Assembly (NCBI GenBank): GCA_033762295.1
Contig: JANRLW010000073.1
Coordinates: 1 to 63,694 of the forward strand
Direction of reading: 5' to 3'
Origin: Capsulimonadales bacterium
GTDB lineage: Bacteria; Armatimonadota; Armatimonadia; Armatimonadales; Armatimonadaceae
Length of the DNA: 63,694 nucleotides
Shown here: positions 21,737 to 29,198 of the stretch, one piece after another
How positions within the stretch are numbered: position 1 is the first letter of the stretch
Layout: every line of letters begins with the position of its first letter
Translations under genes and position numbers: made by a program
The notes under the pieces: generated by a model
Databases searched by the model: none
What the model was told of the DNA's origin: nothing
The model's input: the letters and a program-made list of their open reading frames with translations, nothing else

Positions 21737-22645
21737 TCACGGCTTTTTCCGGTAGACCCGAATGTAATCCACCTCCATCGTTCCCGGAAACGGCGTCGTA
21801 TCATCCGGCATTCCCGGCCAATCGCCGCCGACCGCGAGGTTGGCGATCACATACATCGGGACCTGCGGCACCTGCCGACCGGTTCGCGCCCGTTCCCGCC
21901 CGTCGACATACCAGAGGATCTCGTCGGGCTTCCAGTGCGCGGCGAAGACATGGAAGTTTTTGGAAAAATCCGGCCCGTCGAACTCCTGCGTCTGATGTTC
22001 GTGGACACCCTTCCGGTTCGCCCAGTGGTTGGAAAAGTACACGCGATCGGTTTCATGTCCCAGGATCTCGAGCACGTCGATTTCGGGCGGCCAGGTCCGG
22101 GTATTCGGCAGCAGCCAGAACGCCGGCCACATTCCCTGCCCCTTCGGGAACCGGGCGCGGATCTCGAACCACCCGTATTTTTGCATGAAGCGACCGTGGG
22201 AGGAAACCATGCCGGACGTGTACGGCTTCCCGCCCATTTCGCGACGGAGAGCGGTAAACGTCATCCGCCCCCCGCCAACGGTCACGCCGTCCGGCGCATA
22301 GAACTGCTGTTCGTTATTGCTATGGGTCCGAACGCCACCGGGATAGCAATCGAGCCATTTCGCGCCGTTCAGCCGATTCCCGTCGAATTCGTCCGAGAAG
22401 GTGAGGGTCCAGAGGTTCGGGGCCGTCTGAGGCGTCCCCGGCGCGGGGGGCGGTTCCGGACGCCGTTCGACCGACGCGGGTTCGGACGCCGGAACCGCCG
22501 CATCGACGTCCGCCGACGTTTCCACGGTGGCGGGCGCCTCGTCGGCATAGGCAACTGCCTGTATCTTTCGCACCCCGAGCCAGCCGCCGCACATGACTCC
22601 CGCCGTCGCTACAAACGCGGCGATCACTTTCATCTGGTAGTTCAT
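21737..22645 (-). CDS. glycoside hydrolase family 16 (laminarinase-like), membrane-anchored or exported
   Basis: FSDEFDG, WPAFWLL, EIDVLE catalytic motif, NLAVGGDW; start could be 22684. Confidence 0.92.
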   Translation of the reverse strand: MNYQMKVIAAFVATAGVMCGGWLGVRKIQAVAYADEAPATVETSADVDAAVPASEPASVERRPEPPPAPGTPQTAPNLWTLTFSDEFDGNRLNGAKWLDCYPGGVRTHSNNEQQFYAPDGVTVGGGRMTFTALRREMGGKPYTSGMVSSHGRFMQKYGWFEIRARFPKGQGMWPAFWLLPNTRTWPPEIDVLEILGHETDRVYFSNHWANRKGVHEHQTQEFDGPDFSKNFHVFAAHWKPDEILWYVDGRERARTGRQVPQVPMYVIANLAVGGDWPGMPDDTTPFPGTMEVDYIRVYRKKP

Positions 22646-22696
22646 TCCGGGTGGATCTTCCTTCGTTTCTTCCCGAGGGTTCAACCGATGAGCCGT

Positions 22697-23272
22697 TTAC
22701 TTGCGTAGCAGCCGAATACTCGCCAGTTCGACCGCGTTTTTCGCCTGACCGAACTGGAACGTCAGAAAGAACACCTTTTCCGGATGCTTGTCCACCCGCA
22801 GATCGACCGTGTACTCCTTCCACTGTGTGGTCAGAGCGATTGGCTGCTGCGAATCGGTCGTATACGGAGCGACGGTCGCCTGGGTCATCACCGTAATCTC
22901 CCGTTCCGCCGTCGACCGCGCGAGGAATTTCAACTGCGCCTTTCCGGACGGAATCTGGGCGGTCGGGACCTGAATATGGTATCCGATGCTCCAGGGATGC
23001 GGTCCCGGCTCGAAAATATCGAACCGAACCGGGTCCTTCAGATCGGGGCGGTCCGCCTGAAGCGGTCGCCTGGCGAGACTTGCCCCGGGATCGGAGTACG
23101 CTTCCCAGAGGCTCGCCTTCAGCGGCACCTGTTCGGGGGAACTCGCGACGCGGGGCGCGGCCGTCGCGGACCGGGTAATGGGCTTCAGCGGAAAGAGGCG
23201 GGGCAACACGGCCAGAGAGGCCATGACGCTCAACAGGACGGCGACACCCAGCGGTTTGATGATGACTCGCAT
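22697..23272 (-). CDS. exported carbohydrate-binding (CBM4/9-like) protein
   Basis: N-terminal hydrophobic helix; PHPWSIG, LKFLARS, LTTQWKEY, FQFGQ...VELASIRL beta-sandwich pattern. Confidence 0.65.
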   Translation of the reverse strand: MRVIIKPLGVAVLLSVMASLAVLPRLFPLKPITRSATAAPRVASSPEQVPLKASLWEAYSDPGASLARRPLQADRPDLKDPVRFDIFEPGPHPWSIGYHIQVPTAQIPSGKAQLKFLARSTAEREITVMTQATVAPYTTDSQQPIALTTQWKEYTVDLRVDKHPEKVFFLTFQFGQAKNAVELASIRLLRK

Positions 23273-23452
23273 TCTTGGTTCCCCTGTGTCCGCGGCGCGC
23301 TTCGAGGAGACGGCACGGTCCCGCGGACGAGATAACGTGAGATTACAACGTGATTATCGGACAGCCTTTTGAAAACAACAGGTCTTTTGAGAGTATGGAC
23401 AGGCAAATCGGAGGGGAACCGGGCGGTGTTCCCGCACCGTCTTCTGTAGAAG

Positions 23453-23929
23453 ATGCAAATCGGTCTGCTGATCCTGCTCCGTATGCTGGCGGCGTTTTTC
23501 CTGCTGCCGGTTCCGGCCGGGGCGATGCCGACCTTGCCGGCGGTATCGTCCGTCCGTCCCCCCGCCGTGAAACCGGACCTCTCCCCGAGGCAACCGGTTT
23601 TCCTTGCGGAGTTCCTGCGACCGGCCCTGCCCGAAGCGCGTTCCGTCCGAAACCCGCCGAATCCGTCCGGTCCGTCCGCAGCCCCGGAAGTCGCCGATTG
23701 CCCTTTGTTTTCCTGGCAGTACGGTTCGTCGCTTCCCGATCCGGTCGGCGTCGGACGACCCGCTAACTCCGTACTTCGCTCGCCTGTCCGGCCCTGCCCG
23801 TCGCGCGCTCCGCCGTTTCGACCGTCTCCATCCCCCTCGAACGTCCCGCGCCCGAAACGGAAAGGAAACTGCCATGCCGGCAAGCAACCACGAAACGCGT
23901 CCGCCTCGCTGGGTCCGCGACTTCGGTGA
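23453..23929 (+). CDS. putative regulatory leader peptide (signal peptide, Pro-rich, RAPP motif; DUF2946/CruR-like)
   Basis: Hydrophobic N-terminus ending in AGA, then DCPL, then SRAPP at 23801-23815; overlaps the next gene. Confidence 0.55.
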   Translation: MQIGLLILLRMLAAFFLLPVPAGAMPTLPAVSSVRPPAVKPDLSPRQPVFLAEFLRPALPEARSVRNPPNPSGPSAAPEVADCPLFSWQYGSSLPDPVGVGRPANSVLRSPVRPCPSRAPPFRPSPSPSNVPRPKRKGNCHAGKQPRNASASLGPRLR

Positions 23930-24038
23930 ACGGCTTCTCTATCTGATCCTGGCGCTCTGCGCCGTTGGCCTGCTGTTCGCCGTCGCTATCGAAGTCCCCT
24001 GGCTCAGAAGCCTCCTTTTCCCGGAGGCCAAAGGATGA
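23874..24038 (+). CDS. 54-aa single-TM membrane protein
   Basis: SD AAAGGA; TM LLYLILALCAVGLLFAVAI; ATGA overlap with the antiporter. Confidence 0.65.
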   Translation: MPASNHETRPPRWVRDFGERLLYLILALCAVGLLFAVAIEVPWLRSLLFPEAKG

Positions 24039-25768
24039 ACGGCCATTCCGGAACCGAATTTCTCACCCAGATCGGTATCGTGCTCGGTGCGGCCCTGCTG
24101 AGCGGGCTTGCCGCCCGCGCACTGGGCCTCCCGGTCCTGATCGGTTATCTCCTGGCCGGCCTTCTGGTTGGCCCGCACACGCCCGGTGTCGTCGCGGACC
24201 GGGCCGTCCTCGGCACGGTCGCCGACCTGGGCGTCGCCCTGCTGATGTTCACGGTCGGGGTCCGCTTCTCCCTGCAGGAGTTGAATCAGGTGCGACGAAT
24301 CGCTCTGGTCGGCGGCACGACCCAGATCGCCGGAACGGCGGTTCTCGGCGTCCTCCTCGGACTCCTGTTCGGGTGGGGCGCGTATGCCGGCCTTTTCCTG
24401 GGTTGTGCGCTGGCTCTTTCCTCCACGGCGGTCGTTTTGAAGATCCTCGAGGAGCGGGGCGAGCAGGGAACCACACACGGTCACATTTTGCTCGGATTGC
24501 TGGTCGTCCAGGATCTCTCGCTGGTACTGATGATCGTTCTGCTGCCCGCCCTCGCCGCGCTGAGTACGGAAGGGGTTACCGCCCTGGTCGATGTCGGCAT
24601 CGCTTTGCTCAAAGCGGCGCTCTTCCTGGCAGGGACGATTCTTCTGGCGACGCGCGGCGTCCCCGGACTGTTCGATCGGGTTGCCCGGACCGGATCACGG
24701 GAGCTTTTCCTGTTGACCGTGGTCAGCCTGTGCCTGGCGGCCAGCGTCGCCGCCGAGCGTCTCGGACTCGGACTTCTACTGGGCGCGTTCCTTGCCGGAA
24801 TCGTCGTCTCCGAATCCGGCTTTGCTCAGGAGGTGTTCACCCAGGTTCGACCGCTGCGCGATGTTTTCGCCGCGCTCTTCTTTGTTTCGGTCGGAATGCT
24901 TCTCGATCCCGGCTTCCTCGCCGGAAACGCACTGCCGATCGGCGCGGTCGTTCTGACCATCCTCGTCGGAAAGACACTGGTGACGGTCCTGCCGCTGCGG
25001 TACCTCGGTCTGCCCGGTCGAACGATCGTCCGCACGGGCTTGGGACTGGCTCAGATCGGCGAGTTCTCTTTCGTGCTCGCCTCGGTCGGTGCGGCGGGCG
25101 GGCTGATCGCCCAGGAAATCGGGAATATCATCCTTTCCGCCGCGCTGGTAACGATCCTTCTGACACCGTTTGTTTACGGCAGTGCGGACCCCGTGTACCA
25201 ATCTCTCCTTCGCGTTCCCCGTCTTCAGCGGTGGCTGAACGGGCCGACCCCCACGGTCGAACGTTCCGATTCCCCCGCCGCCGTCTGCGGGCCGGACGCC
25301 TCACGGGTGGTGATCCTGGGCGCGGGACGAGTCGGCCGGTACGTCTCGGACGCTCTCCGGGCGCACGATATTCTCCATACCGTGATCGATTACGACGGCA
25401 ACGCACTGGAACGCCTGCGCGACAACGCGGCGACGATCTATGGCGACGCGACCAGCGAGATCGTACTCGAACAAACCGCGCCGGAGTGCGCCGAACTGGC
25501 GATCATCGCCCTGCCCGACGCGGATTCGACCGAAATCGCCCTCCGTCAGATCAAGCGGATGGCGCCTTCTTTGCCGGTCGTCGTTCGGGTCCATCGCGGC
25601 ATCGACATCCCCCGGATGCGTAAGGCGGGCGCGGATACCGTGATCCATGCCGAGTTCGAGGCCGGTACCGAGATGATCCGGCAGGGATTGGATCGTCTGG
25701 GCATTCGGGATCCGGAAGTGGACGCCTACATCGGCGCGGTCCGCGAACGACGTTATAGAGAAGGCTGA
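24035..25768 (+). CDS. CPA2 cation:proton antiporter with TrkA-N/RCK domain (YbaL/Kef-like)
   Basis: LGVALLMFTVG, LSSTAVV, LVVQDL, PLRDVFAALFFVSVG, LAQIGEFSFVL; RCK motifs GAGRVG and YGDAT. Confidence 0.93.
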   Translation: MNGHSGTEFLTQIGIVLGAALLSGLAARALGLPVLIGYLLAGLLVGPHTPGVVADRAVLGTVADLGVALLMFTVGVRFSLQELNQVRRIALVGGTTQIAGTAVLGVLLGLLFGWGAYAGLFLGCALALSSTAVVLKILEERGEQGTTHGHILLGLLVVQDLSLVLMIVLLPALAALSTEGVTALVDVGIALLKAALFLAGTILLATRGVPGLFDRVARTGSRELFLLTVVSLCLAASVAAERLGLGLLLGAFLAGIVVSESGFAQEVFTQVRPLRDVFAALFFVSVGMLLDPGFLAGNALPIGAVVLTILVGKTLVTVLPLRYLGLPGRTIVRTGLGLAQIGEFSFVLASVGAAGGLIAQEIGNIILSAALVTILLTPFVYGSADPVYQSLLRVPRLQRWLNGPTPTVERSDSPAAVCGPDASRVVILGAGRVGRYVSDALRAHDILHTVIDYDGNALERLRDNAATIYGDATSEIVLEQTAPECAELAIIALPDADSTEIALRQIKRMAPSLPVVVRVHRGIDIPRMRKAGADTVIHAEFEAGTEMIRQGLDRLGIRDPEVDAYIGAVRERRYREG

Positions 25769-25911
25769 GACGTACACCGCCGATTCCCCTCGCTTCGGTC
25801 CGTTTCCGATCGAGGGAGGATTTTCGGCGGGAGCGAAGGAAACGGAGTTCGGACGGCGTCATGCCGTTACAGGATCATGTCACAGGGTTGGCCCGGGAGG
25901 ATGCCCGTATC

Positions 25912-27213
25912 ATGACACGCCGACAATGGCTCCGGGGAGCGACCGCCCTGGTCTTTCAGCCGGACAGGGGATTTCGGGACACCGGATCGCTTCTGGCCGG
26001 GGCGGCCAGGCGCGTCATCACCCCCGACCCGCTGCTTCCCCTGTCGGGCGGGATGGGTCCCCCGCAACCCGCCCTCCGGAAACAGGGAGAGTTGACCGTC
26101 CGCGCCCTCTATCTTCGCCGGGGCGAGACCGCCATTGCCATTGTCGGTCTGGACCTTCTCGGCTTTCCCGGAGTCCTGGCGGACCGTGTCCGCGCCCGGG
26201 TTCCCCGACTGAAGCCGGAAGCGATTCTGATCGGCGCCACCCACACCCATAGTGCGCCCGACTGCTATGCCTTTCCGGACGGGAAGGGCGGTCATACCGG
26301 CGACCTGAAATACCTCGACCGGGTTTGCGTCCTCGCCGCCGAGGCCGTCAACGAGGCGATCGATCGCGCCCGGCCCGCCCGCCTCCGGGTCGGAACGGAC
26401 GAAGCGCGCGGGAAGATCGCCTACAACTACTACGCACCCGACCTTTACGACCGGCGGATGTCGGTCCTGCAGGCGACCGCCGACGACGGAAGGGCGATTG
26501 TCACCCTGGTCAACTACGCGATCCATCCGGAGGTGATCGGCAACGGGCAGGGCATCCTGAGTCCGGACCTCTGCGGACCGCTCTATGACCGCATCGAGGA
26601 GAAGGCGGGCGGAATCGCGCTCTTCATGAACGGAGCGCAGGGCGGGATGGTCACCGCCGACAACCGCTCGCCGGAGAAGCTGAAGGACCCTCTGCGCGGG
26701 TACTGGGAGGATGAGCGTACCTGGGAGGAGTGCGTCCGCATCGGCAACACGATGGCCGACGAGGCGTTGCGGATCATCGGCAACGCCCCGGTTCAGGACC
26801 ATCCGGGCCTCGTCCTGCGAAGCGTTCGGGTTACTCTTCCGGTCTCCTCCCCGGAGATGTGGCAGGTCGTCACGCAGTCTCCGCTGGGCTATCCGCACGG
26901 CAAGGAGCGGACGATACGGACGCGCCTTGCCCTGGTGAACGTGGGGGACGCCCAGATCCTGACGATTCCCGGCGAGGCCCTGCCCAATATCGGGTTCTTC
27001 CTCAAGCGGAAGATGCGCGGACGACACAACCTGCTGTTCGGCCTGACGAACGACGCCTTCGGCTATATCCTGACCGAGGTGGACTTCCGGAGCTTCCCCC
27101 GGTACGAGTATGTCTCCCGCACATCACTGGGCGAGCAGACCGGCCCGCTTTTGATCCGGAAATGGCTGGAACTGATCCGGAACAGTCCGCGTCCCGACGC
27201 CGGACCGGGGTAG
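25912..27213 (+). CDS. neutral/alkaline ceramidase-like hydrolase, possible Tat signal
   Basis: MTRRQWL; ATHTHSAP, NYAIHP, NGAQGG, TIPGE, GLTNDAFGY; alternative start 25861. Confidence 0.75.
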   Translation: MTRRQWLRGATALVFQPDRGFRDTGSLLAGAARRVITPDPLLPLSGGMGPPQPALRKQGELTVRALYLRRGETAIAIVGLDLLGFPGVLADRVRARVPRLKPEAILIGATHTHSAPDCYAFPDGKGGHTGDLKYLDRVCVLAAEAVNEAIDRARPARLRVGTDEARGKIAYNYYAPDLYDRRMSVLQATADDGRAIVTLVNYAIHPEVIGNGQGILSPDLCGPLYDRIEEKAGGIALFMNGAQGGMVTADNRSPEKLKDPLRGYWEDERTWEECVRIGNTMADEALRIIGNAPVQDHPGLVLRSVRVTLPVSSPEMWQVVTQSPLGYPHGKERTIRTRLALVNVGDAQILTIPGEALPNIGFFLKRKMRGRHNLLFGLTNDAFGYILTEVDFRSFPRYEYVSRTSLGEQTGPLLIRKWLELIRNSPRPDAGPG

Positions 27214-27488
27214 ATCGACCGTACAAACCATCATGAGGTTAGGCACCGTTACCCTCCGTTCAAGAGCGGCTGTAAGAATCTCCGAAAATCCGCATTTTAC
27301 CGAGATGGCACTACATAGGAGTTTCCGCTGTTCCCGGCGAACCGGCTAGATAATGAAGCACACGGTCCACGACTCCGTCGTCAGTTTTATCCGGAACATT
27401 GCGGATGATTGCCTTCGGGTCTGGTCCGATCGTGCCGATGAAGCCGTCCGGTTTGGAATTGACATTCGATCGTTCGGGGAGTGAGGCG

Positions 27489-28151
27489 ATGTTATCAGCG
27501 TCTCAGCCTGATCGACGACCCGTGTCGCCGAAGATATACCATATTACCCACAGCGATAACCTGCCCTCTCTCATTGCGGATGGCTACCTCTGGTCGGATG
27601 CCGAATCGTTACGCCGTGGGACTGTCCGCACCACTATCGGCATGAGTGAGATCAAAAGACGCCGGCTGGAAGAGTTGGAGGTAGGGTGCTGTCCGGGGGC
27701 CAAGGTCGGCCAATTCGTCCCGTTCTACTTTTGCCCTCGTTCGATCATGCTCTATATCCTCTACCGAGGGGATGCACCGGGCCTTCATTATACGGGCGGA
27801 CAACGGCCCATCGTCCACATGGAAGCGGACCTGCGAGAAGCGGTTACATGGGCAAATGCCCACGGGCGGATGTGGGCTTTTTCCACCAGCAACGCCGGAG
27901 CCTACTACACCGACTTTTACAACGATCTCGGGAAACTGGACAGGATCGATTGGGAGGCAGTTCACGCGACGAACTGGCAACAGAGGAAAGAAGGGAAACA
28001 GGCCGAATACTTATCCTATCAATCCTTCCCATGGTATCTTATCCGTCGGATCGGCGTGATGGATGCAACCGTCGCCAAACAGGTCCGGGGTCATCTCACC
28101 GGAGCGACCCATATTCCTGAAGTGACCGTCATCCCGGAGTGGTACTATTAA
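27489..28151 (+). CDS. darT: DarT DNA ADP-ribosyltransferase toxin (DUF4433)
   Basis: IYHITHSDNL, FVPFYFCPRSIMLY, FSTSNAG, KQAE catalytic Glu, PEWYY terminus; start uncertain. Confidence 0.92.
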   Translation: MLSASQPDRRPVSPKIYHITHSDNLPSLIADGYLWSDAESLRRGTVRTTIGMSEIKRRRLEELEVGCCPGAKVGQFVPFYFCPRSIMLYILYRGDAPGLHYTGGQRPIVHMEADLREAVTWANAHGRMWAFSTSNAGAYYTDFYNDLGKLDRIDWEAVHATNWQQRKEGKQAEYLSYQSFPWYLIRRIGVMDATVAKQVRGHLTGATHIPEVTVIPEWYY

Positions 28152-28157
28152 CCACGA

Positions 28158-29198
28158 ATGATTCACATGGCCCAAGGCGATATATTGCAGGCGGACGCTG
28201 AAGCCCTCGTCAATACCGTTAATTGCGTGGGAGTAATGGGGCGCGGCGTCGCCCTTCAGTTCCGCAAAGCATACCCCGAAAACTTCAAGCTCTACAAATC
28301 CGTTTGTGATAAACAGGAACTGACGCCCGGTCAGGTGCTTACCTACTCGCGCGATACCCTGGAGCACCCGCGTTATATTATTAACTTCCCTACCAAGCGG
28401 CACTGGAAAGGCCACAGCCGGATCGAGTATATCGAAACCGGATTGGAGGCCCTGATTGCGGAGGTGCAACGACTCAACATCCGCTCCATCGCGATCCCCC
28501 CGCTGGGTTGCGGTCTGGGTGGTCTGGACTGGAACGACGTACGTCCCAGAATCGAGGCCGCTTTTCGCCAGCTTCTGGACGTCAAAGTACTGCTCTATGA
28601 ACCTGCGGGTGCGCCGACGCCCGGAGCAATGGTGAAGGAGAAGAAGATCCCGAGAATGTCCTTGGGGCGGGCCATTCTTCTTGCCTTGATCCGTCAATAT
28701 CTCTCTGCGCTCATGGACACCTCCGTTACTCTCCTGGAAATCCACAAATTAATGTACTTCATGGAAGAGGCAGGTGAACCGCTCGATCTGAGGTACAAGA
28801 AAGCTGCCTACGGTCCCTATTCCGAGAGGATGCGTCATGTGCTTAGCGCTATCGAAGGACATTTCCTCGCAGGGTACGGCGACGGTCAGGATGCACCGCA
28901 GAAGGCGATCGAAGTACTGCCGGGGGCGGACCTGAAAGCCATGGAGTTTCTACAGGAGCAACCGGAGACGCTGGAACGGTTGGATCGGGTTGCCGAACTG
29001 ATTCGCGGGTTTGAAACTCCTTTCGGGATGGAACTGCTATCCACCGTTTATTGGGTCGCTAAGTCCGAACAGGCTCCGAACATCGATGCGATCATCGCCG
29101 GAGTTTACGGGTGGAATCCGCACAAAGCGATCTTTCAGGAACGGCAAATCCGCCTTGCTTACGAAGTACTGCAAAAGCGGGGGTGGCTAACGGCCTGA
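28158..29198 (+). CDS. darG: DarG macrodomain antitoxin
   Basis: AEALVNTVNCVGVMGRGVALQF, INFPTKRHW, PPLGCGLGGLDW; C-terminal EIHKLMYF, YGPYS, GFETPFGMELLSTVYW. Confidence 0.94.
   Translation: MIHMAQGDILQADAEALVNTVNCVGVMGRGVALQFRKAYPENFKLYKSVCDKQELTPGQVLTYSRDTLEHPRYIINFPTKRHWKGHSRIEYIETGLEALIAEVQRLNIRSIAIPPLGCGLGGLDWNDVRPRIEAAFRQLLDVKVLLYEPAGAPTPGAMVKEKKIPRMSLGRAILLALIRQYLSALMDTSVTLLEIHKLMYFMEEAGEPLDLRYKKAAYGPYSERMRHVLSAIEGHFLAGYGDGQDAPQKAIEVLPGADLKAMEFLQEQPETLERLDRVAELIRGFETPFGMELLSTVYWVAKSEQAPNIDAIIAGVYGWNPHKAIFQERQIRLAYEVLQKRGWLTA

Follow-up and report, generated by a model that had tools for sequence, protein, structure and literature searches.

RAPP and RGPP are ribosome-arrest motifs that work in many N-terminal contexts and resist EF-P (Fujiwara, Tsuji, Sakiyama, Niki and Chiba 2025, EMBO J, PMC12992588). 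The motifs are excluded from bacterial proteomes and are concentrated toward the C-terminal ends of small secreted or membrane proteins whose genes precede others of diverse function; arrest is reported for all seven Streptomyces RAPP/RGPP proteins assayed and for CruR. The element considered here is a candidate leader of this type from Capsulimonadales bacterium (Armatimonadota), located in a 63,694-nucleotide (nt) stretch of DNA (GCA_033762295.1, contig JANRLW010000073.1, positions 1 to 63,694), which as a whole is termed the window. The candidate is an open reading frame (ORF) of 158 amino acids (aa) that precedes genes for a 54-aa membrane protein and a CPA2 cation/proton antiporter and, as judged from its sequence and its recurrence at related loci, is probably a RAPP-type arrest-peptide-like leader of this small-protein/antiporter operon.

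Leaders of this kind in front of antiporters were already tabulated in 2025, the year in which RAPP leaders before genes other than those of Sec/YidC were first recognized. In the 30-row source table of Fig. 4B of PMC12992588, cation:proton antiporters stand behind 75 RAPP versus 81 AAPP upstream ORFs (uORFs), a 3.63-fold enrichment (adjusted p 1.66e-12). The individual uORF rows include at least 21 before cation:proton antiporters, at least 14 before potassium/proton antiporters, at least 23 before Mrp subunit A and at least three before NhaD (e.g., row 3946, a 109-aa uORF ending in RMGRAPPSA before a 576-aa cation:proton antiporter). In Geobacter, GS_RS01305 is located 412 nt before the 588-aa GS_RS01300. 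The claim of the initial annotation that no such leader had been described for CPA2 antiporters is, thus, outdated. Antiporters, cations and protons are nowhere mentioned in the main text of PMC12992588, and a literature search for arrest peptides together with antiporters, with most subscription journals outside its coverage, found no main-text treatment. The terms 'armatimonad', 'Twin-arginine' and 'TatA' do not occur in the searched portions of the PMC12992588 text and supplements, and the available portion of PMC10987492 (Fujiwara 2024) has no mention of TatA, Armatimonadota or antiporters. The 2025 survey drops downstream genes annotated as 'unknown' or 'hypothetical' and so would miss a layout with an intervening tiny gene.

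The window leader resembles the RAPP/RGPP uORFs of PMC12992588 in having fewer than 300 aa, a localization signal, a RAPP in its C-terminal part and a co-directional gene close behind. It differs in that a gene for a tiny membrane protein lies between leader and antiporter, the host belongs to the Armatimonadota, 37 residues separate the RAPP from the stop and tatA intervenes in one relative; among the assays in the available sections of that work, none concerns an antiporter leader. With ApdA/ApdP (Sakiyama 2021, PMC7897499; Fujiwara 2024, PMC10987492; Morici 2024, PMC10951233), SecM, MifM and VemP, the leader shares an N-terminal Sec signal, a variable spacer and its position at the head of an operon, together with a C-terminal RAPP core, and release of the arrest by translocation pull is likely the logic common to it and the Sec/YidC monitoring substrates. 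By contrast to the latter, the putatively regulated genes here encode an ion antiporter and a 54-aa membrane protein, not localization machinery, and an export gene (tatA) stands behind the leader in a single relative (L032). While a stem-loop that masks the Shine-Dalgarno (SD) element is documented for secM-secA, none is substantiated for the window leader.

CruR of Bordetella pertussis and CutF of Rhodobacter capsulatus are copper-responsive and likewise exported leaders, with a C-terminal RAPP and control over a non-Sec downstream gene (PMC9426467; PMC12992588). Unlike these, the window leader has no DUF2946 (PF11162) match and no conserved Cys, and its downstream gene is not copper-related. 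The link to DUF2946-type leaders that had been drawn for this ORF is not supported, as it matches 0 Pfam families at E <= 0.1 and has no conserved Cys/His motif; it also matches no NCBIfam family. The discussion of PMC12992588 names as open both the signal sensed by RAPP leaders of non-Sec genes and the way in which their stall is released. What the locus contributes to this background is an additional phylum, the repeated presence of a tiny membrane protein between leader and antiporter, and a connection to tatA in relatives; it contributes no new mechanism.

Recurrence of the leader at related antiporter loci

A signal peptide combined with a RAPP-like motif was looked for upstream of orthologous antiporters, and an ORF with both is present on the same strand at seven antiporter loci (six Armatimonadota genomes and one metagenome contig; Table 1). 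At the leader-bearing loci of relatives, the antiporters are 58-64% identical to that of the window. The leaders are not alignable at the nucleotide level. In an alignment of six leader proteins, the mean column identity is 30%, and the only invariant columns are the R, A, P and P of the motif and one Pro located 15 residues earlier; no Cys or His column is conserved among the six. A charged-then-hydrophobic N-terminal stretch comparable to that of the window leader is found in L009, L010, L032, L047 and L073. The L047 leader (about 1309-1755) is a variant in which RGPP is located 23 residues before the stop and RDPP occupies the place of the relatives' RAPP. RAPP, thus, is conserved where the neighboring sequence has diverged, which points to selective retention of the motif at the seven loci, and the leader is very probably a selected RAPP element.

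The loci were drawn from 41 related genomes, 401 genomes of the phylum (27 with a match at E <= 1e-120), a contig scan (15 loci) and 20 extra upstream stretches, leaving 33 loci after de-duplication, of which 32 are distinct (L043 equals L049). Metagenome contigs, scanned with an alignment of 11 antiporter sequences, contributed 80 loci, 72 of which have at least 250 nt upstream; among these 72, L073 is the one with a leader. To be called positive by the detector, an ORF had to contain a RAPP-like motif, show a hydrophobic stretch behind its start codon (signal-like N-terminus) and reach the stop no more than 40 residues after the motif. Two control motif sets were run alongside, one with the leading Arg (His in HGPP) replaced by Ala and one with the motifs reversed. 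Six of 104 loci are positive (one contig contributes two of the 104 entries), compared to 0/104 for the Ala set and 0/104 for the reversed set. The L040 leader scores negative because its N-terminus is missing.

RAPP-like motifs also occur upstream of orthologous antiporters by chance (e.g., RAPP/RAPG at -1150 in L047 and at -235 in L058). In L058, the motif belongs to a 34-aa ORF (MKNRSAIRMLPKMAVPIRRRDMRAPPSRGACAHP, then stop) about 235 nt before the antiporter, with RAPP eight residues from the stop; the ORF has no signal peptide, lies inside a long, seemingly non-coding frame and was rejected. The RAPP upstream of the antiporter in L086 was likewise taken as chance, having no signal peptide.

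RAPP and RGPP leaders elsewhere in the genome

The genome of the window (G000) carries further ORFs of this type, one of which stands before secA. Here, a 158-aa signal-peptide ORF ending in SLPPRAPPAAA is located 126 nt before secA (SecA_DEAD 8.7e-115). This Armatimonadota RAPP leader has the classical SecM/Apd-like layout of a monitoring substrate.

RAPP is depleted from the long frames of the genome, in agreement with what PMC12992588 reports for bacterial proteomes. In frames of at least 300 aa, RAPP and RGPP each occur 40 times, compared to 137 for AAPP, 137 for PPAR and 169 for PPGR; RAPP is, thus, about 3.4-fold depleted relative to AAPP or PPAR. Ten ORFs of the genome have both a signal-like start and a RAPP or RGPP no more than 40 residues before the stop; two of the ten (contig C34) are seemingly spurious. 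The last motif is two to four residues before the stop in 7/10 of these ORFs versus 0/7 of the AAPP/AGPP control ORFs. With the secA leader and at least six more RAPP/RGPP leaders in one genome, the window leader is one of a set, distinct only by its long tail.

The other members of the set precede a variety of genes. Four signal-peptide or transmembrane ORFs have RGPP or RAPP two to four residues before the stop. One stands before a HupE/UreJ protein (L068:69-539, +), one before a coiled-coil protein and a DUF1559/prepilin-type protein (L069:2663-3232, -), one before an ABC transporter (L070:2062-2451, -; the weak DUF2946 match of this leader, 5.3e-4, is below the cut-off) and one before a YtkA-like protein (L072:163-681, +). 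Three of these four leaders (contigs C18 and C64 are among the sources) have a CxxC motif. On contig C21, two Cys-rich signal-peptide ORFs (L071:4638-5075, -, and 537-1019, -) each carry RAPP plus RGPP (endings APRAPPVGAVPARGPPFFS and EARGPPPTPDFAASPASPRAPPLS, each followed by a stop), and a thioredoxin/redoxin protein with a YHS domain is encoded between the two, downstream of one.

Anatomy of the leader and the genes behind it

The leader starts at ATG 23453 with a signal-peptide-like N-terminus (MQIGLLILLRMLAAFFLLPVPAGA), and the Pro-rich body, DCPL, SRAPP and RAPP codons that the initial annotation had described are all in place, with DCPL and SRAPP both inside the ORF. GC by codon position is 0.72/0.59/0.74 up to RAPP, with a gene-like third position (GC3), and 0.65/0.68/0.62 beyond. 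The next ATG does follow 58 nt past position 23815, as had been reported; its precise position (23874-23876) is one base off the earlier account. Instead of closing soon after RAPP, the ORF stays open for another 37 codons; its stop is at 23927-23929, so that it shares 56 nt with the beginning of the 54-aa gene. As none of the forward frames just 3' of RAPP has a nearby stop, a nearby frameshift could not yield the short tail of the relatives. If the ribosome stalls with the geometry described for RAPP (PMC10951233 and section 14 of PMC12992588), peptidyl-RAP-tRNA would occupy the P-site codon 23810-23812 and Pro-tRNA the A-site codon 23813-23815.

Sequence searches return no relatives of the leader. 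A collection of 5.8 billion proteins gave 111 word-sharing candidates, with 0 at E <= 0.01, and a tblastn comparison of both leader and small protein with nine orthologous loci returned low-complexity noise only. Four ORFs that overlap the leader (23230..23883, -; 23354..23887, -; 23350..23766, +; 23604..24038, +) were set aside, as they match no Pfam family and have a less gene-like GC3.

The 54-aa ORF overlaps the antiporter start as ATGA (24035-24038), the coupling layout that had been described. The 54-aa protein belongs to no Pfam or NCBIfam family, and its matches in a protein atlas all score below 0.9 and are all unnamed. The antiporter matches Na_H_Exchanger (PF00999, 6.7e-60) and TrkA_N (PF02254, 1e-20), and its nearest solved structure is KefC (8bxg, 6.6e-46). 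Among the NCBIfam models, the YbaL family K+ efflux transporter scores highest, followed by KefC and KefB; at 326.6 bits, against an equivalog cut-off of 700 bits, the protein is YbaL-like and not an equivalog. The match to TIGR00932 (CPA2) is 3.4e-60 with 203.9 bits, compared to a cut-off of 238.3 bits. By homology, the antiporter is classed as a YbaL/Kef-like CPA2 member.

Table 1. Leader, downstream genes, proposed stem and counterparts at related loci. Locations without a locus label are positions of the window; dots before a leader end stand for preceding residues.
Feature	Location	Strand	Basis or remark
Leader ORF of 158 aa with signal peptide, Pro-rich body, RAPP (residues 118-121) and 37-codon tail	23453..23929	+	sequence and ORF table
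Predicted Sec-type signal peptide, 24 aa, AGA end	23453..23524	+	hydropathy alone (12-residue Kyte-Doolittle maximum 2.5)
RAPP codons CGC GCT CCG CCG	23804-23815	+	read from sequence
Stem 5' arm (TCC. CCGTTTCG), begins at RAPP Pro codons	23809..23820	+	would sit inside a ribosome stalled at RAPP
C-rich, G-poor stretch from RAPP to next start	23816..23873	+	41% C, 21% G, C/G 2.0
Stem 3' arm CGAAACGG and purine-rich SD-like GGAAAGGAAA, 5-14 nt before ATG	23853..23868	+	
54-aa single-pass membrane protein gene	23874..24038	+	ORF table; GC by codon position 0.70/0.46/0.74, antiporter-like
CPA2 cation/proton antiporter, 577 aa, C-terminal TrkA-N (RCK/KTN) domain, YbaL/Kef-like	24035..25768	+	Pfam, NCBIfam
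Leader end, window (G000)			...PCPSRAPP, then 37 residues
Leader end, L009 (G006)			...VRSPRAPPALCLLRLFL, stop (shorter form ...SPRAPPALCLLRLFL, stop)
Leader end, L010 (G017)			...AGGTRAPPIPLPFPCLLSL, stop (shorter form ...GTRAPPIPLPFPCLLSL, stop)
Leader end, L032 (Chthonomonadaceae metagenome-assembled genome, MAG)			...PSSPRAPPSLL, stop
Leader end, L040 (Chthonomonadaceae MAG; N-terminus lost at contig end)			...QASPRAPPFYS, stop
Leader end, L047 (G003, second antiporter copy)			...SRRGPP...SSPRDPPVRLL, stop
Leader end, L073 (metagenome contig, antiporter 61% identical)			...ASSPRAPPLLSL, stop (...SSPRAPPLLSL, stop)
secA leader, G000 contig C84	L067:3719-4192	-	
secA, G000 contig C84	L067:111-3590	-	
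tatA	L032:1937-2197		
tatA	L044:2067-2279		
tatA	L059:29-199		

Small membrane proteins and tatA at related loci

In L009, L010, L032, L040 and L044, a small ORF of 49-72 aa with one transmembrane helix precedes the antiporter and ends at its start or shortly ahead of it. In L032, L040 and L044, the small protein also carries an N-terminal CxxC...CxxC zinc ribbon, for which the Pfam matches are weak. In L047, the single-pass membrane protein is replaced by a 66-aa Cys-rich ORF (about 2046-2243) with a strong SD and a TGATG overlap with the antiporter. There is no small ORF before the antiporter in L073.

The twin-arginine translocation gene tatA (Pfam TatA_B_E, 1.6e-14 to 2.7e-10) directly precedes the small ORF or the antiporter in L032, L044 and L059, and a TatA-like C-terminal fragment takes its place in L045; L032, L044 and L045 are Chthonomonadaceae. 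The gene order in L032 is leader, tatA, zinc-ribbon membrane protein and antiporter; thus, a RAPP leader precedes tatA at this locus. A RAPP leader before tatA is not mentioned in the searched portions of PMC12992588 and PMC10987492 and their supplements. The tatA genes of the window genome are located elsewhere, not at the antiporter locus.

From arrest to expression of the antiporter operon

The reading that is favored, with some reserve, is that export-dependent arrest at RAPP up-regulates the 54-aa gene and the antiporter. The anatomy of the leader, the retention of its RAPP and the same device before secA are observed; stalling, the signal sensed and the link to the downstream genes are inferred. 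In the proposed mechanism, the 158-aa ORF would encode a regulatory leader that is targeted to Sec and belongs to the RAPP arrest peptides. While the Sec translocon pulls on the N-terminal signal peptide, the ribosome would pause only briefly at RAPP; weak export force, as might arise from a poorly energized or ionically stressed membrane, would make the pause a lasting one. The stalled ribosome would then raise the expression of two translationally coupled products, the 54-aa membrane protein and the YbaL-like antiporter, a putative K+(Na+)/H+ exchanger. Release of the ribosome-binding site would be the textbook route from arrest to expression; the particular stem is unproven.

A further step is that the leader serves as a sensor of membrane energization, in which Sec pull would report the proton-motive force or ionic state and a weak pull would turn on the antiporter along with the tiny membrane protein as its obligatory subunit. 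This extension is tentative and, on balance, rather improbable. If true, the same arrest in Chthonomonadaceae would also switch on TatA, whose export uses the proton-motive force, and the RAPP leaders before CPA, NhaP2, Mrp and NhaD antiporters in other phyla would be convergent, placing ion and pH homeostasis under a secretion monitoring substrate. The antiporter-linked leaders offer a concrete, testable hypothesis, that export force is a read-out of membrane energization.

Several observations weigh against the favored reading. The distribution of the leader is patchy, with 98 of the 104 loci detector-negative, and the four closest orthologues of the window antiporter (L003, L004, L005 and L006; 67-69% identity) are without a leader and have differing upstream contexts. 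As most loci are without it, the antiporter does not need the leader. Because the loci with a leader are related to one another, the counts exaggerate how independent they are. The RAPP of the window is 37 residues from the stop compared to 3-11 in L009, L010, L032, L040 and L073, and the window leader is atypical also in that its frame runs through the start region (SD and ATG) of the 54-aa gene. The leader's own ATG has no SD close by. A scan of 23150-26000 for sigma-70-like promoter and terminator consensus sequences found 0 promoters and two terminator-like sites, a number within the shuffle expectation.

To these points are added the folding results for the hairpin by which the initial annotation would have masked the ribosome-binding site of the 54-aa gene. 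The pairing itself is real on paper: CCGTTTCG (23813-23820) and CGAAACGG (23853-23860) are exactly complementary, and TCC (23809-23811) faces GGA (23864-23866). In an 83-nt fold, the stem is part of the minimum free energy (MFE) structure (-19.6 kcal/mol), yet 149 of 200 shuffles are as stable or more so (z = +0.71); in a 161-nt fold, the stem is displaced by other pairings (z = +1.43). With a ribosome modeled on the RAPP codons, the mean unpaired probability of the SD was compared to 21-42 control positions per locus. The value without and with the ribosome is 0.54 and 0.54 in the window, 0.41 and 0.42 in L010, and 0.45 and 0.47 in L032, all within the controls; the gain exceeds all controls only in L009 (0.32 to 0.42) and L040 (0.27 to 0.41). 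The masking hairpin is, thus, not upheld in the window, with no energetic excess over shuffles, no place in the MFE structure of the longer fold and no gain in accessibility.

The local-fold MFE structures pair the SD at or just past RAPP in the window, L010, L032 and L040. The duplex between the RAPP segment and the SD in the window (-13.6), however, ranks 27th relative to 106 other 30-nt segments of the leader, and the ranks across six loci (27/106, 51/90, 62/112, 19/103, 6/21 and 32/106) are in no case better than those of other leader segments. Owing to its Pro, Ser and Leu codons, the leader is C/U-rich along its entire length and, thus, anti-SD-like, so that the stem is without evidential weight; a plausible anti-SD stem beside Pro codons can arise as a side effect of coding sequence rich in C. 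The specific SD-masking stem is doubtful. Of the earlier proposal of a RAPP arrest leader for the antiporter operon, the leader identity is supported by the seven loci and the secA leader of the same genome, whereas the specific hairpin is not. As the hairpin is not supported beyond chance, the route from stalling to the downstream genes remains inferred.

Alternative explanations

One alternative keeps RAPP stalling and makes the output transcriptional. In TnaC, a stalled ribosome blocks Rho and transcription continues. Similarly, the C-rich RNA that follows RAPP could be a Rho loading site covered by the parked ribosome; a ribosome that leaves and terminates would expose it, and Rho would stop transcription before the small gene and the antiporter. 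In accord with this scheme, the C/G ratio in the 58-60 nt after RAPP is 1.3-3.8 across the seven loci (2.6-3.8 in L032, L040 and L073), and the window value of 2.0 is near the 95th percentile (1.96) of its own 58-nt segments. The spacer from RAPP to the start, 58-299 nt, is a poor fit to an SD-masking stem, and SD accessibility barely responds to the modeled ribosome in three of five loci. The window leader ORF, however, spans the spacer, and the C-rich RNA is translated whenever a ribosome passes RAPP. The C-richness is also expected from Pro/Ser/Leu codons and anti-SD-like CCUCC runs, and there is little C excess in L047 (1.7) and L009 (1.3, no richer than its own leader body). Rho-dependent control of this kind is unlikely.

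In a second alternative, the input would be a ligand or condition in the periplasm (K+, Na+, pH or a metal) instead of Sec capacity, with folding or binding of the exported part pulling the stall free, as is proposed for the copper-responsive CruR/CutF leaders. The downstream product handles cations and is no Sec component, every full-length leader has at least one Cys in its exported part, and CxxC-bearing RAPP/RGPP leaders stand before metal-related genes in the same genome; the discussion of PMC12992588 raises the possibility for non-Sec RAPP leaders in general. Against ligand sensing, the six leaders have no conserved column beyond RAPP and one Pro and no common Cys/His motif, the leader has no DUF2946 or other Pfam match, and the Pro-rich, unalignable spacer resembles a tether and not a binding domain. 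Sensing of a ligand is accordingly given little credence compared to the export-dependent arrest favored above.

That there is no regulation, the ORF being an ordinary small secreted Pro-rich protein or a non-gene with a chance RAPP in GC-rich DNA, is highly improbable. In its favor, frames of at least 30 aa in this 62% GC genome contain 482 RAPP motifs in all, chance RAPP/RAPG motifs lie upstream of other orthologues (L047 and L058) and the leader has neither sequence-search homologues nor a nearby SD. Against it, the motif keeps an equivalent position at seven loci despite divergence elsewhere, both control motif sets are empty, RAPP is depleted in long frames and GC3 is gene-like up to the motif.

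Genomic neighborhood

Upstream of and divergent from the leader are genes for a GH16 glycoside hydrolase (21737..22684, -; 4.7e-27) with a signal-anchor-like N-terminus and for a 191-aa secreted protein with a weak CBM_4_9 match (22697..23272, -); neither has an evident relation to the operon. Downstream, a gene for a DarT single-stranded DNA ADP-ribosyltransferase toxin (27399..28151, +; Pfam DarT 7e-59) is followed after 6 nt by a 346-aa ORF (28158..29198, +) with a macrodomain-like N-terminus, which would make it a candidate DarG. The two are likely a DarTG toxin-antitoxin pair, located 1.6 kb downstream of the antiporter.

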